From UHGV virus genome UHGV-0075699: a DNA stretch of 19,854 bases; one strand, written 5' to 3'. The notes beneath the pieces were generated by a model that was given only the letters and a program-made list of their open reading frames with translations, was not told the DNA's origin and did no database searches. Positions 11,935-14,377 of this stretch are shown piece after piece. This stretch comes from a virus. The translations under genes were made by a program, and so were the position numbers. The number at the start of each line of letters is the position of its first letter. Positions within the stretch are counted from its first letter, which is position 1.

Positions 11935-12488
11935 GCGGATTTCTCCATACACATTGATTTATTCGCCACGACGCCCGGAGCTGCACACTCGCGGGCGTCA
12001 CTCTTTTCTGGCTGGCAGAAAATGCGATAAACAAGAATCGAATGCTCCTGAAGTTTTTGAATAGAGCTATACAGCTCTCCATCGATCGCCGCGCGTTCAT
12101 GCGGCTCAATCACACCATCTTCGATCGCTACCCGAATCTGTTGCGAATAGGCTGTAATCTGTTCGATAACCTCAAGCAGTCCCTGATTGATATCTGCGTT
12201 ATCCACTTCTTCAATATCCGCTAGCGGAACAAAGACCCCGCCGGACTGGCGCGCGACCGCATCGGTGATGTGACTTGCGCCACCAGCACGCTGCAGCACC
12301 ATCGCCCACTCAAGCGGGAAGATCTGATCACCAGCGACGCGCAGGCGGTTGAATAAGGCGTTTTCAGTTATACCCAGCCATTCAGCCGCCTCGGCATAAC
12401 CTCCAGGCAGTTCAGTAATCGTTTTCTTGATCGCGGCCACCAACCAGGCTGGTTGACGCTCTACTTTCCAAATTGGCTCATTACCCAC
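11931..12488 (-). CDS. CII-like phage regulatory protein (Phage_CP76 / 186-CII-like family)
   Basis: Segment [55 protein letters not shown]...[18 protein letters not shown] fits the remembered conservation pattern of this family; position directly after cro; GTG start with AGGGGGGG RBS. Confidence 0.55.
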
Positions 12489-12532
12489 GGTTCCCCCCCT
12501 TTTTCTGTGGTTCTTGCTGTTGCAAGTACCTG

Positions 12533-12733
12533 TTATGTTTTGGAATAGATATCTGGCCTAAGCTGCGATCTGGTGATGGCACCGGAGGTGCTTTTCTCCA
12601 ACTTTTTTGCTAGGTCAAAACCAGCTTTCTTGTAGCCATTGAAAACCAAACGTAGGTAACCGGTAGTGGAGCCAACGTTTGTTGCTAATTTGCTCTGTTG
12701 TTCTTTGGTTAATGAATCCCAAAACTCTTTCAT
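12533..12733 (-). CDS. Cro-like repressor (YdaS-type HTH)
   Basis: 66-aa protein from the ATG at 12733 (MKEFWDSLTKEQQSKLATNVGSTTGYLRLVFNGYKKAGFDLAKKLEKSTSGAITRSQLRPDIY), strong AGGAGG SD 7 nt upstream; divergent from the CI repressor gene across an operator-rich intergenic region. Confidence 0.7.
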   Translation of the reverse strand: MKEFWDSLTKEQQSKLATNVGSTTGYLRLVFNGYKKAGFDLAKKLEKSTSGAITRSQLRPDIYSKT

Positions 12734-12820
12734 ATATGTACCTCCTGTGTACATATTACACGAAAGAAATGAACCTTCAAGGTACTTGTACCTTTACGGT
12801 ACACGCGGTTTAATTTCCCT
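12734..12820. promoter_or_regulatory. OR-like divergent promoter/operator region between cro and cI
   Basis: Palindromes ATATGTAC-N7-GTACATAT (12734-12756) and AAGGTAC-TT-GTACCTT (12779-12794). Candidate pR on minus (-35 TTGAAG 12775-12780, -10 TAATAT 12753-12758) and candidate pRM on plus (-35 TTGTAC 12786-12791, -10 TTTAAT 12809-12814) that would start at or next to the cI ATG (leaderless). Confidence 0.55.
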
Positions 12821-13495
12821 ATGAAAACAATCCAGGAAATCAGGCGTTTAAACGCCAGAAAGTTGAGAGATGGTGTTGGTGGAAATACTTTTTTTGCCAA
12901 TATGATTGATCGCGAGCCTACTCAAACAAGCCGGTTCATGGGGGACGGCGCGACAAAAAACATCGGCGATGCTATGGCAAGGCACATTGAAAAATGTTTC
13001 GACTTGCCAACTGGGTGGTTAGATCAAGAACACCAAACCACAAACGTGGCAAAGGCCCCTGATGTCTCCGATACAAATAGAAATATCACGATGGTTCCGG
13101 TTATATCCTGGGTACAGGCAGGAGCATGGACCGAAGTTGGTTATGCTGAGGTAGATTTGAATAGTACGGAAAACTATCCCTGTCCTGTCCCTTGTGGCCC
13201 GATGACATACATCCTTCGAGTAATTGGCGACTCCATGATCGATGAGTATCGCCCTGGTGATATGATTTTTGTTGACCCTGAGGTCCCCGCAGTCCATGGC
13301 GATGATGTTATCGCTTTGATGCACGACTCTGGAGAAACAACATTTAAGCGCCTGATTGAAGATGCCGGTAACCGTTATTTAAAAGCTCTTAATTCGAACT
13401 GGCCTGAACCCTATATAAAAATCAACGGTAATTGCTCAATCATTGGAACCGTGATTTTTTCAGGAAAACCAAGAAGATATAGAATAAAAAATTAA
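12821..13495 (+). CDS. CI-type prophage repressor (N-terminal HTH, C-terminal LexA-like S24 peptidase domain)
   Basis: C-terminal domain has the Ser-Lys dyad context (VIGDSM ... TFKRL) of S24 autocleaving repressors; N-terminal region is a small DNA-binding domain; divergent from cro; followed by a strong terminator. Confidence 0.85.
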   Translation: MKTIQEIRRLNARKLRDGVGGNTFFANMIDREPTQTSRFMGDGATKNIGDAMARHIEKCFDLPTGWLDQEHQTTNVAKAPDVSDTNRNITMVPVISWVQAGAWTEVGYAEVDLNSTENYPCPVPCGPMTYILRVIGDSMIDEYRPGDMIFVDPEVPAVHGDDVIALMHDSGETTFKRLIEDAGNRYLKALNSNWPEPYIKINGNCSIIGTVIFSGKPRRYRIKN

Positions 13496-13505
13496 TCCTT
13501 CCCTC

Positions 13506-13530
13506 AAAACCTGCTGCGGCAGGTTTTTTT
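13506..13530 (+). terminator. Rho-independent terminator of cI
   Basis: AAAACCTGCTGCGGCAGGTTTTTTT: perfect hairpin (CCTGC-UGC-GCAGG) flanked by an A-run and a 7-T run, 11 nt after the cI stop. Confidence 0.75.
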
Positions 13531-13534
13531 ACGC

Positions 13535-13570
13535 TTGACAATGTACCTATCAGATACATAATGTACCTAA
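13535..13570 (+). promoter_or_regulatory. pL-like early-left promoter with operator repeats
   Basis: TTGACA (13535-13540), 16-bp spacer, CATAAT (13557-13562); two copies of ATGTACCTA (13541-13549 and 13561-13569) overlap the spacer and start region. The same TGTACCT motif occurs in the OR palindromes. Confidence 0.55.
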
Positions 13571-14005
13571 AAGAAACAACATGAAAGCGCATTCCATCTT
13601 CATCCGTCGTGGGGACTGGTTTGTTACTGAAGGAGTGCGCTTCCAGTTGTGGTAATTGCGGCTATGCGCACGTGACGAGCCAAACCCGTTCAATGAATGC
13701 GTTTCCGGGTAGTGTACGTCGCCGGTTATGGCTTAACCCGGCAGGTGGAGGCAAGGGCTTTACCCGGGCGGGTGGAGCCCCCCCCGCCACAACTCGAATT
13801 GCTGTGTGTAGTCTTTGCCCAGTCTCCCCGATGGGCCCTTTTTTTACACAACAGGAAAGAGCACCGCCGGCGCCGGGAACTAACCCAGTCCGGATCCGGG
13901 TTCAAAGTGTGGACCCTCTCTCCTTCAGGCTCTGAACTGGTGCTCTCCCCTGTTGTGTATGGAGAAACTAATGGCGGTGGCAGCCGCCTTTCGAGAGGGT
14001 AAACC

Positions 14006-14377
14006 ATGAGTAATGATCGTATGACAGTCGTACCCGATTTCCTGGGTGAGCTGGACGCCGGCGTGTTCATGAACAAGATTGCGGCGGCTCTTAATACCAC
14101 CGCGCTCGGCGTTCTGAACAACGGCAACAAAGGCAAGGTAGTCCTCACCTTTGATTTTGAGCGTATGGGCAACTCTGTTGAAGAGAAGCGCGTCAAGATT
14201 AAGCACAAGCTGAACTACAGCACACCAACTCCCCGTGGCAAAGCGTCGGAAGAGGACACCACCGAAACACCAATGTGGGTCAACAAAGGCGGAAAGCTCA
14301 CCATCCTGCAGGAAGATCAGGGGCAGCTGTTCGGGATCACCGGCACGGTGGATGGAAAGCTTAAAGCGGCTCAGTGA
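14006..14377 (+). CDS. Hypothetical early-left protein (123 aa), YfdP-like by size and position
   Basis: ORF with GAGGG RBS 7 nt upstream; first gene after the pL leader; followed by DUF2303-like and HD-domain genes in the order recalled for E. coli CPS-53 yfdP-yfdQ-yfdR. Confidence 0.5.
   Translation: MSNDRMTVVPDFLGELDAGVFMNKIAAALNTTALGVLNNGNKGKVVLTFDFERMGNSVEEKRVKIKHKLNYSTPTPRGKASEEDTTETPMWVNKGGKLTILQEDQGQLFGITGTVDGKLKAAQ

Follow-up and report, generated by a model that had tools for sequence, protein, structure and literature searches.

A probable immunity region of the e14/SfV type in a lambdoid prophage, with five predicted 17-bp operator sites

Genes and features of the region

The stretch of DNA analysed here (the window) covers 19,854 nucleotides of the virus genome UHGV-0075699. 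Between positions 12536 and 13578, it carries a small cro-like gene and a cI repressor gene, divergent and separated by an 87-bp intergenic region, then a terminator and a promoter, pL (Table 1).

The C-terminal domain of cI belongs to the Pfam family Peptidase_S24 (E = 3.7e-25) and its best PDB match by phmmer is the C-terminal domain of lambda cI (1f39, E = 3e-9). The protein carries the motifs VQA-GAW, GDSM and FKRL, and its Ala-Gly site (A100, G101) and Ser/Lys dyad (S138, K176) are invariant in 33 homologues. cI is predicted to be an SOS-cleavable repressor. The N-terminal 80 residues have no Pfam match even at E = 10, and in the phmmer comparison with the PDB, lambda cI aligns to this protein over the C-terminal domain only. 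A profile of the N-terminal domain matches PDB 5d50_A, annotated "Repressor" (E = 1e-8, residues 1-72), as well as 7nkv/8c3l (E about 3e-4, residues 32-72) and, weakly, the HTH of HigA. A single-sequence AlphaFold model of cI was unusable (pLDDT 30).

Among known repressors, cI is 87% identical over 223 residues to YmfK/CohE, encoded by the prophage e14 of E. coli K-12, and 86.5-87% identical to the cI proteins of the phages SfV, SfIV, cdtI and Stx2c. The predicted recognition helix DREPTQTSRFMG is identical in cI and in YmfK of e14. The protein encoded by the cro-like gene matches Pfam YdaS_toxin/HTH (E = 4.7e-7) and PHROG 35, a family of transcriptional repressors; this gene is annotated as a 201-nt cro in SfV, cdtI and PhiR49_1.

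Table 1. Genes, promoters, terminator and predicted operators of the region (positions in the window)
Feature	Positions	Strand	Description
cro-like gene, YmfT/CroE type	12536..12733	-	66 aa; ATG 12733-12731; Shine-Dalgarno AGGAGG = complement of 12741-12746
OR-A (OR1-like predicted operator)	12737..12753	.	TGTACCTCCTGTGTACA; 11/12 specified consensus positions
pR (predicted)	12753..12780	-	-35 TTGAAG = complement of 12775-12780; 16-nt spacer; -10 TAATAT = complement of 12753-12758
OR-B (OR2-like predicted operator)	12770..12786	.	TGAACCTTCAAGGTACT; 10/12 consensus positions
pRM	12786..12821	+	-35 TTGTAC 12786-12791; 17-nt spacer; -10 TTTAAT 12809-12814; predicted +1 at A of cI ATG (12821)
OR-C (OR3-like predicted operator)	12787..12803	.	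TGTACCTTTACGGTACA; 12/12 consensus positions
cI repressor	12821..13495	+	224 aa; N-terminal HTH-type DNA-binding domain (about residues 1-72) and C-terminal S24 self-cleavage domain
cI intrinsic terminator	13506..13530	+	hairpin 13506-13527 and T-run; -13.1 kcal/mol, z -3.74; inverted repeat found
pL	13535..13562	+	TTGACA-16-CATAAT; 11/12 positions in promoter scan
OL1 (predicted operator)	13542..13558	.	TGTACCTATCAGATACA; 11/12 consensus positions; inside pL spacer
OL2 (predicted operator)	13562..13578	.	TGTACCTAAAAGAAACA; 10/12 consensus positions; over pL +1

Operator sites

The predicted operator unit of the region is a 17-bp inverted repeat, TGTACC-N5-GGTACA, present three times between cro and cI and twice at pL. 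With at most two mismatches, this pattern has exactly five matches in the whole 19.8-kb window, all within these two regulatory regions, for an expectation of 0.38 +/- 0.61 sites; five matches were reached in none of 200 shuffles. By comparison, ATGTACCT with at most one mismatch gives 19 matches vs 9.8 expected, and TGTACC by itself occurs 12 times in the window. A repeat search independently recovered the 17-nt family (12770, 12787 and 13542, with 12736 pairing with 13541) and a 20-nt tandem at 13540/13560. It had been proposed in an earlier note on this DNA that the same half-site, TGTACCT, flanks cI on both sides. It is indeed present on both sides, but its conserved core is TGTACC, the seventh base (T) lying in the variable centre of the sites.

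OR-A covers the predicted start of pR and holds the cro Shine-Dalgarno sequence within its centre. It stands apart, 33 bp from OR-B, which overlaps the -35 element of pR and has its centre at -43 relative to the cI start. OR-B and OR-C adjoin, with 17 bp (about 1.6 helical turns) from centre to centre. OR-C, the sole operator with a perfect consensus, is placed on pRM (-35 element and spacer) and not on pR. The centres of OL1 and OL2 are 20 bp apart. OR-B and OL2 each deviate from the consensus at two positions, the right half of OL2 being only GAAACA, and may be weak sites or sites filled only cooperatively.

These predicted operators would be bound by cI and by Cro. In the literature searched, neither binding data for the present repressor, YmfK of e14 or cI of SfV nor mapped operators of YmfK/CohE or of the SfV cI were found; the two papers likeliest to define such sites, Allison 2002 (SfV) and Mehta 2004 (e14), were outside this search.

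Conservation and co-variation in relatives

The phylogenetic footprint was built from 64 distinct OR and 82 distinct OL sequences, taken from loci whose cI is at least 74% identical. The loci of these relatives were retrieved by a protein-guided search; megablast against phages and E. coli gave few matches at the DNA level, as DNA identity within the group is only about 78%. The nearest relatives of the prophage are found in Klebsiella and other Enterobacteriaceae.

In both sets, the half-sites do not vary, whereas their 5-bp centres change freely. For example, the half-site columns of OR-C hold 1.68-2.0 bits in the 64 relatives vs 0.29-0.68 bits for the five centre columns, and OL1 shows the same conserved half-sites and variable centre columns in the 82 relatives. 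These half-sites of OR-C and OL1 fall in promoter spacers, where RNA polymerase sets no sequence constraint.

The number of mismatches per operator is also steady among relatives. OR-C is perfect in 59 of the 64, and OR-A has one mismatch in 59 of the 64, with about 2 bits in each column of its arms. In OR-B, TGAACC never varies and GGTACT hardly does. OL1 is perfect in 66 of the 82 relatives and has one mismatch in the 16 others; OL2 has two mismatches in 72 of the 82, with an invariant left half and a right half kept as G(A/C)AACA. In the same way, the gap between OR-A and OR-B is 16 nt in 64/64 relatives, OR-C lies 17 nt from the cI ATG in 60/64, and the spacing of OL1 and OL2 is fixed.

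More distant relatives extend this comparison. In Proteus (58% identical) and Salinicola (54%), the helix is kept as EPTQ(T/V/A)SR and the sites are still of the GTAC type. In relatives from Kushneria (about 45%), the helix reads EPPAASR, and TTAACC repeats are found instead, at pL and upstream of cI. Judged from these alignments, the predicted operator motif changes along with the recognition helix of the repressor.

Promoters, terminator and the start of the cI transcript

The promoter scan called only pL. pR and pRM match the consensus at 8/12 positions each, which is below the threshold of the scan, and their assignment therefore rests on conservation and on the start site known in e14. 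For pR, the TTG of the -35 element and ATATTA are conserved in relatives, and transcription is predicted to start at about 12746-12748. pRM lacks the usual A at -11 of its -10 element.

The -10 hexamer TTTAAT of pRM ends 6 nt upstream of the cI ATG, where the earlier note had placed it, and none of GGAG, GAGG or AGGA precedes this ATG, as had also been noticed. Both features are widespread: a hexamer NNNAAT occupies -12 to -7 from the cI ATG in 62/64 relatives, and in 63/64 no Shine-Dalgarno-like sequence was found upstream of cI. Conservation of the cI N-terminus, MKTI.EIRR, extends down to 44% identity, so that this ATG is the true start of the protein. The window shares the geometry TTGTAC-17-TTTAAT-6-ATG with ymfK of e14, whose transcription start was mapped by dRNA-seq at distance 0 from the ATG (Romero 2014, text and Table S3, PMC4681348) and is listed as 1202157/1202156. 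Since this orthologue has the same promoter geometry and starts at its ATG, the earlier proposal that cI is leaderless is supported, the cI mRNA probably starting at its own ATG. In K-12, moreover, no start other than that of ymfK is listed over about 5 kb to each side of the e14 immunity region; ymfT and pL have no listed start, as would be expected if YmfK represses both.

The terminator and the following promoter that the earlier note had described after cI were both found. The terminator scan missed the former, the stem extending into the T-run, but folding confirmed it; it is annotated in SfV and conserved in relatives, although the sequences of its stem differ among them. pL is invariant in 82 relatives and is predicted to start at about 13569. 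Here it is followed by a non-coding leader of 436 nt that carries an RprA-like module, then by yfdP/Q/R-like genes. The other Rfam matches in 12400-14100, MIR535 and rsmX, are weak and far under the gathering scores, and were dismissed.

Interpretation and alternatives

The region 12536-13578 is very probably the immunity (lysis/lysogeny) region of a lambdoid prophage belonging to the e14/SfV immunity group. The lambda OR/OL-like layout suggested earlier thus holds at the level of arrangement, the predicted 17-bp sites lying on three promoters around cI. cI and the small Cro would be transcribed divergently from the 87-bp region holding three of these operators. A repressor at OR-A would cover both the start of the cro promoter and the ribosome-binding site of cro, while OR-B, on the -35 element of pR, would correspond by its position to the site from which lambda cI bound at OR2 activates pRM. 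Occupation of the adjoining OR-C would cover the -35 element and spacer of pRM. The strong pL, directly after the cI terminator, would be controlled through OL1 in its spacer and OL2 at its start.

In the lysogenic state, both pR and pL would be silenced by cI dimers bound at OR-A/OR-B and OL1/OL2, the weak pRM would make cI from a transcript beginning at the A of the ATG, and cI at OR-C would exert negative autoregulation. This order of site filling is presumed, and the activation of pRM from OR-B is suggested by the -43 geometry. As OR-B and OR-C abut, unlike the lambda operators, a pairwise cooperativity of the lambda style cannot simply be assumed.

In a first alternative, considered unlikely, the sites are real but would be read in pairs (OR-B with OR-C, OL1 with OL2) by a repressor tetramer, and not by independent dimers with pairwise cooperativity as in lambda. 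The closest solved relative of the N-terminal domain of cI is that of PDB 5d50, which we take to be the Rep repressor of the Salmonella phage SPC32H. This Rep reportedly acts in a non-canonical "trans" mode, paired sites being bound by a tetramer. The binding mode of the SPC32H Rep tetramer has been described (PMC9638917), and the profile match to 5d50_A over residues 1-72 is consistent with such a mode for cI, as is the centre-to-centre spacing of the two pairs, 17 and 20 bp, which is fixed in relatives. However, oligomerisation is set by the C-terminal domain, which here is of the lambda-cI-like S24 type and not of the SPC32H Rep type. Furthermore, OR-A stands alone. A switch wired unlike that of lambda, with tetramer units on OR-B+OR-C and OL1+OL2 and a tight negative autoregulation as default, has a similarly small chance of being correct; it is raised because the perfect OR-C lies on pRM, because OR-B and OR-C abut, and because the N-terminal domain is kin to that of a tetramer-binding repressor. 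If true, e14, SfV, cdtI and Stx2c phages would share a separate way of building the lysogeny switch.

The immunity-region reading with a single 17-bp unit also has to be weighed against the anatomy as the earlier note had drawn it, with two differently built palindromes (8-N7-8 at 12734-12756 and 7-N2-7 at 12779-12794) and two direct ATGTACCTA repeats at pL. That these would be the functional elements is very improbable, even though all three exist as written and GGTAC-TT-GTACC is conserved in most relatives. A single dimeric HTH protein cannot read half-sites spaced by both N7 and N2, whereas one 17-bp register fits all five sites. The first palindrome, ATATGTAC-CTCCTGT-GTACATAT, is present, but it lies over the -10/+1 of pR and the cro Shine-Dalgarno sequence, not over a -35 element as had been stated. 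AAGGTAC-TT-GTACCTT, although present too, was rejected as an operator: it arises where two 17-bp sites meet, the right half of OR-B adjoining the left half of OR-C, and its palindromic form is poorly conserved. Its 7-N2-7 arms are fully complementary in only 23/64 relatives, its outer TT belongs to the variable OR-C centre (columns 24-25, 0.29-0.39 bits), and no site of the N2 type exists at OR-A or pL. As to the two ATGTACCTA repeats, they are found at 13541-13549 and 13561-13569; at a distance of 11 bp, each is matched by a conserved right half, so that they are the left halves of the inverted repeats OL1 and OL2 and not direct-repeat sites.

The palindrome at 12734-12756 could also be viewed as an RNA hairpin hiding the cro Shine-Dalgarno sequence, and thus as a translational control and not a DNA operator. 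The Shine-Dalgarno sequence does lie in the loop of the 8-bp inverted repeat, which is fully complementary in 44/64 relatives, but this view is hardly credible. The conserved -10 element of pR (complement of 12753-12758) overlaps the right arm, so that pR transcripts, starting within the palindrome (about 12746-12748), would lack one arm of the hairpin; furthermore, the 17-bp pattern also occurs at four other places that have no Shine-Dalgarno sequence. Finally, GTAC is a short palindrome and TGTACC alone is frequent in the window, but the likelihood that the clustering reflects chance, promoter composition or a restriction/methylation target is practically negligible in view of the shuffles, of the invariant half-sites beside free centres in 64-82 relatives and of the shift of the motif with the recognition helix in Kushneria.

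Comparison with known systems

The region resembles that of lambda by its divergent cI and cro genes, its three 17-bp inverted-repeat operators at OR, its pL with operators, and the S24 C-terminal domain of its repressor, which includes an Ala-Gly site and the motifs of a Ser/Lys dyad. In lambda, as is predicted here, the middle OR operator is centred about -42/-43 relative to the start of pRM, the operator next to pRM occludes this promoter, and the cI mRNA made from pRM is leaderless. The differences are also numerous. The recognition sequence is TGTACC-N5-GGTACA here and of the TATCACCGCCGGTGATA type in lambda, and the N-terminal domain of cI has no detectable sequence relation to that of lambda. 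The OR sites of lambda are spaced by about 23-24 bp from centre to centre, whereas here OR2 and OR3 abut (17 bp) and OR1 and OR2 are 33 bp apart. No more than two OL sites were detected, and pL immediately follows cI, at a distance of about 0.75 kb from OR. Cro is an HTH protein of the YdaS type, and no N-like gene was seen beside pL.

The N-terminal DNA-binding domain of cI is homologous to those of 5d50 and of 7nkv/8c3k/8c3l ("Phage repressor protein CI"). However, the C-terminal domain and the mode of inactivation differ, with a predicted S24 self-cleavage here and an antirepressor there. The recognition helix reads EPTQTSRF in the window vs RSQNLVNRW in the aligned structure; since these residues differ, the operators should differ as well.

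The likeness is much closer with e14, where ymfK (cohE) is cI-like and is accompanied by ymfT (croE) and ymfL. The gene order is alike (cII-like, cro, cI, terminator, pL), as are the position and spacing of the five operators and the geometry of pRM, whereas the identity of the DNA is only about 77-78% and the operator centres differ. The pL operon of e14 reads into ymfJ and int/xis, whereas the pL leader of the window is different. Direct comparison with e14 of K-12 and with SfV found matching half-sites at the matching OR and OL positions. In SfV, the "putative operator region" 26377..26445 of the GenBank entry U82619.2 (2002) spans OR-A to OR-C exactly, starting at the left edge of the former and stopping at the right edge of the latter, and the terminator and the two-site pL are as in the window. 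Related cI and cro genes are also carried by SfIV, cdtI, Stx2c phages, Ayreon and 2H10, although the host and the remaining genome differ in this group.

This control region is thus of an e14/SfV lambdoid type that is already known, a textbook case involving no new principle. The assignment to this immunity group means that the prophage should share its repressor specificity with e14, SfV/SfIV, cdtI and Stx2c phages. Resident prophages of the group, including the cryptic e14 of K-12, are predicted to repress the pR and pL of one another. Furthermore, the comparative set yields a clean predicted operator consensus, TGTACC-N5-GGTACA, for YmfK/CohE, a K-12 regulator still listed as "putative".

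The immunity region and its predicted operators

The region from 12533 to 13580 comprises, in order, a cro-like gene, an 87-bp intergenic region, the repressor gene cI and a terminator with a promoter (see table); the gene located leftward beyond the cro-like gene encodes a CII (CP76)-type regulator according to a domain search. On the best-supported reading, this region very probably functions as a switch of lambda type within the e14/SfV immunity group (e14 is a cryptic prophage of E. coli K-12 and SfV a Shigella phage).

One 17-bp inverted repeat, TGTACC-N5-GGTACA, accommodates all the sites. Allowing up to two mismatches, it has exactly five matches in the 19,854 bp and no others in the window: three between cro and cI (OR-A, OR-B and OR-C) and two at pL, the promoter found after the cI terminator (OL1 and OL2). 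Thus, a common half-site flanks cI on both sides, as the earlier note had claimed. A repeat search run without knowledge of the motif also picked out this 17-nt family, along with the 20-nt tandem found at pL. The half-site as written in the note, with at most one mismatch, gives 19 matches in the window versus 9.8 expected, an about 2-fold enrichment that understates the signal because its register is wrong.

Predicted features of the immunity region, with mismatches of the operators to TGTACC-N5-GGTACA
Feature	Position	Strand or direction	Description	Mismatches	Relatives
cro-like gene, 66 aa	ATG at 12733	leftward	YdaS-type HTH product
cro Shine-Dalgarno	complement of 12741-12746	minus	AGGAGG
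pR (cro promoter)	complement of 12780-12753	minus	TTGAAG-16-TAATAT		TTG and -10 conserved
pRM (cI promoter)	-35 12786-91; -10 12809-14	+	TTGTAC, 17-nt spacer, TTTAAT, 6 nt to ATG
cI repressor gene, 224 aa	12821-13495	rightward	Peptidase_S24 domain, E = 3.7e-25
cI hairpin terminator	13506-13530	+	-13.1 kcal/mol, z -3.7 (folding)
pL	13535-13562	+	TTGACA-16-CATAAT, near-consensus, 11/12 positions (promoter scan); directly adjoins cI terminator
OR-A	start 12737		operator, cro-cI	1	one mismatch in 59/64
OR-B	start 12770		operator, cro-cI	2	two mismatches in 50/64
OR-C	start 12787		operator, cro-cI	0	perfect in 59/64
OL1	start 13542		operator, pL	1	perfect in 66/82
OL2	start 13562		operator, pL	2	two mismatches in 72/82

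At pL, where the relatives show no variation in either the -35 or the -10, OL1 occupies the spacer and OL2 lies over the start. The pR start is predicted at about 12746-12748 and OR-A therefore spans it; the centre of OR-A contains the cro Shine-Dalgarno and OR-B lies over the pR -35. OR-C covers the -35 and the spacer of pRM, and the centre of OR-B is found at -43 from the cI ATG, the position of OR2 relative to pRM in lambda. Both pR and pRM match 8/12 consensus positions, which is below the call level of the promoter scan; they are putatively assigned from their conservation, together with the start site known from e14. Binding of the repressor to the five predicted operators is inferred.

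Conservation among relatives

The loci compared were 137 relatives retrieved by protein search and 5 annotated ones. Restricted to a cI identity of at least 74%, they gave 64 distinct cro-cI and 82 distinct post-cI regions. Among the 64 cro-cI regions, the half-site columns of OR-C carry 1.68-2.0 bits, 10/12 being invariant, while its five centre columns carry 0.29-0.68 bits and the flanking spacer is equally variable. OL1 follows a similar pattern in the 82 post-cI regions. Such conservation of the half-sites points to a sequence-specific protein, since RNA polymerase leaves promoter spacers unconstrained. Furthermore, the spacing is rigid, with 16 nt from OR-A to OR-B in all 64 relatives and 17 nt from OR-C to the cI ATG in 60 of them.

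In Proteus and Salinicola, whose cI is 58% and 54% identical, respectively, the predicted recognition helix EPTQ(T/V/A)SR is retained and so are GTAC-type sites. Kushneria prophages (cI about 45% identical) keep the gene layout, but their predicted helix is EPPAASR, not EPTQTSR, and TTAACC repeats (e.g., TTGACCGTATTAACCAAATGATTAACCATG) replace TGTACC both at pL, 80-120 nt beyond the cI homologue, and upstream of this gene, at a distance of about 100 nt. Together these relatives form a natural specificity control and, on this comparison of sequences, Kushneria would represent a natural switch of specificity inside one repressor family.

A probably leaderless cI transcript

The earlier note also proposed a leaderless cI. 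No Shine-Dalgarno-like sequence was found upstream of the cI ATG in the window or in 63 of the 64 relatives, 62 of which have a -10-like NNNAAT at -12 to -7 from this ATG. The start codon is fixed by the reading frame, which is closed by a stop at 12770-72 and contains no other start between that stop and 12821, and by the N-terminus MKTI.EIRR, conserved down to 44% identity. The orthologue ymfK of e14, preceded by the same TTGTAC-17-TTTAAT-6-ATG arrangement, is one of only five leaderless mRNAs identified by differential RNA-seq in E. coli K-12, its transcript beginning with the start codon itself (distance 0; Romero et al. 2014, PMC4681348), which supports the proposal. In the start-site list of this study, the e14 immunity region and about 5 kb to each side of it contain a single entry, that of ymfK (RVS 1202156/7), and lack one for ymfT, the cro counterpart, and for the e14 pL. 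These absences fit a fully repressed cryptic prophage in which YmfK would repress both.

The repressor protein and alternative readings

The C-terminal domain of cI is lambda-cI-like (best PDB matches 1f39 and 3bdn), and A100, G101, S138 and K176 are invariant among homologues. For residues 1-75 (12821-13045), Pfam gave no family at thresholds as loose as E = 10. A profile built from 25 homologues matched PDB 5d50 'Repressor' in its N-terminal domain (E = 1e-8), a protein that we take to be Rep of the Salmonella phage SPC32H, then 7nkv/8c3l 'Phage repressor protein CI' (E about 3e-4) and, weakly, HigA HTH domains. A single-sequence AlphaFold model (pLDDT 30) was discarded. As judged from these matches, cI is a predicted mosaic, since it joins a 5d50-type N-terminal domain to a lambda-cI-like S24 domain.

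Two repeats touch this gene: a 19-nt direct repeat (17/19 positions) between 13333-13351, within cI codons (ETTFKRL), and 13572-13590, at the pL transcript start, and a 15-nt inverted repeat (14/15 positions) between 12838-12852 and 13343-13357, with one arm in the 5' part and the other in the 3' part of cI. A rough hand count makes both repeats rarer than expected, at about 0.002 and 0.02 per region, respectively; they may be the trace of a mosaic joint. Inside its 3' end, cI also holds a promoter-like TTTTCA-17-TAGAAT (9/12 positions; 13457-13485, + strand) just before the stop and terminator; an sRNA, svsR, was proposed at the cI 3' end of the E. coli lambdoid prophage NC-SV (PMC12803456, 2026).

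The relation to 5d50, the abutting of OR-B and OR-C and the 20-bp spacing of OL1 and OL2 would suit a variant of the switch in which a repressor tetramer occupies paired sites; with a lambda-like C-terminal domain, this variant is rather unlikely. The operator anatomy of the earlier note has little chance of being literally right. Its lambda-like logic stands and all the elements it quoted were found where it had placed them, but its operator elements are better read through the single 17-bp repeat: ATATGTAC-N7-GTACATAT is OR-A plus 3 flanking bp per side, and each ATGTACCTA 'direct repeat' is a left half, one of OL1 and the other of OL2, whose right half follows 11 bp downstream. The second palindrome, AAGGTAC-TT-GTACCTT, is rejected as an operator: it is the right half of OR-B abutting the left half of OR-C and is fully complementary in only 23/64 relatives. 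An RNA hairpin covering the cro Shine-Dalgarno is highly improbable, since it would share part of one arm with the conserved pR -10. Chance, or a restriction or methylation target, hardly deserves consideration, with 0.38 +/- 0.61 matches to TGTACC-N5-GGTACA expected and five reached in 0/200 shuffles.

The pL leader

The stretch from pL to the yfdP-like gene (13570-14005) is a site of variable cargo: a tRNA-Gly(CCC) in the Hafnia phage yong2 (2867-2940), orf33 and a terminator in SfV and, in most relatives, a conserved leader of another kind (ACAGCGAACAGGCAGGACGCCCACGAAGTAGCC...). In the window, the 436-nt pL leader carries an RprA-like module (13743-13846, + strand; core 13795-13821) that scores 45.7 bits (E = 1.3e-4) against Rfam RF00034, short of the gathering score (70). 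Over the 27 nt CGAATTGCTGTGTGTAGTCTTTGCCCA, it agrees fully with nt 57-83 of E. coli K-12 rprA, in the RprA 3' half, and a terminator hairpin and a U7 run come next; its 5' half bears no relation to RprA. Exact copies of the 24-mer core were found in 64 IMG/VR viral contigs, where the upstream sequences represent at least 10 unrelated contexts, none of which resembles the host rprA 5' half; some copies directly follow tRNA-like 3' ends. Compensatory changes accompany the differences among the terminator stems. The whole resembles a module carried by phages, 'RprA 3' half plus terminator', whose candidate roles are those of an sRNA mimic, of an early terminator or of a recombination/att remnant. 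The 282-nt leader of the window is strongly structured (-109.5 kcal/mol, z -2.7).

Comparison with known systems

A cI about 98% identical is found in Klebsiella spallanzanii and several IMG/VR viral contigs. Those of the Shigella phages SfV and SfIV, of cdtI, of Stx2c phages and of others are 86.5-87% identical, and YmfK of e14 is 87% identical. A literature search found no footprints or EMSA for any member of the e14/SfV group. The e14 repressor (cohE/ymfK) is described as SOS-responsive (bioRxiv 10.1101/2020.11.19.390815). The GenBank record of SfV (U82619.2) annotates the cI terminator and a 'putative operator region' (26377..26445), which, once aligned, runs from the first base of ATGTACC (OR-A) to the last base of GGTACA (OR-C). 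From this annotation and the e14 data, both the layout and the leaderless transcript were therefore already known for orthologues, and the system of the window belongs to a known immunity type.
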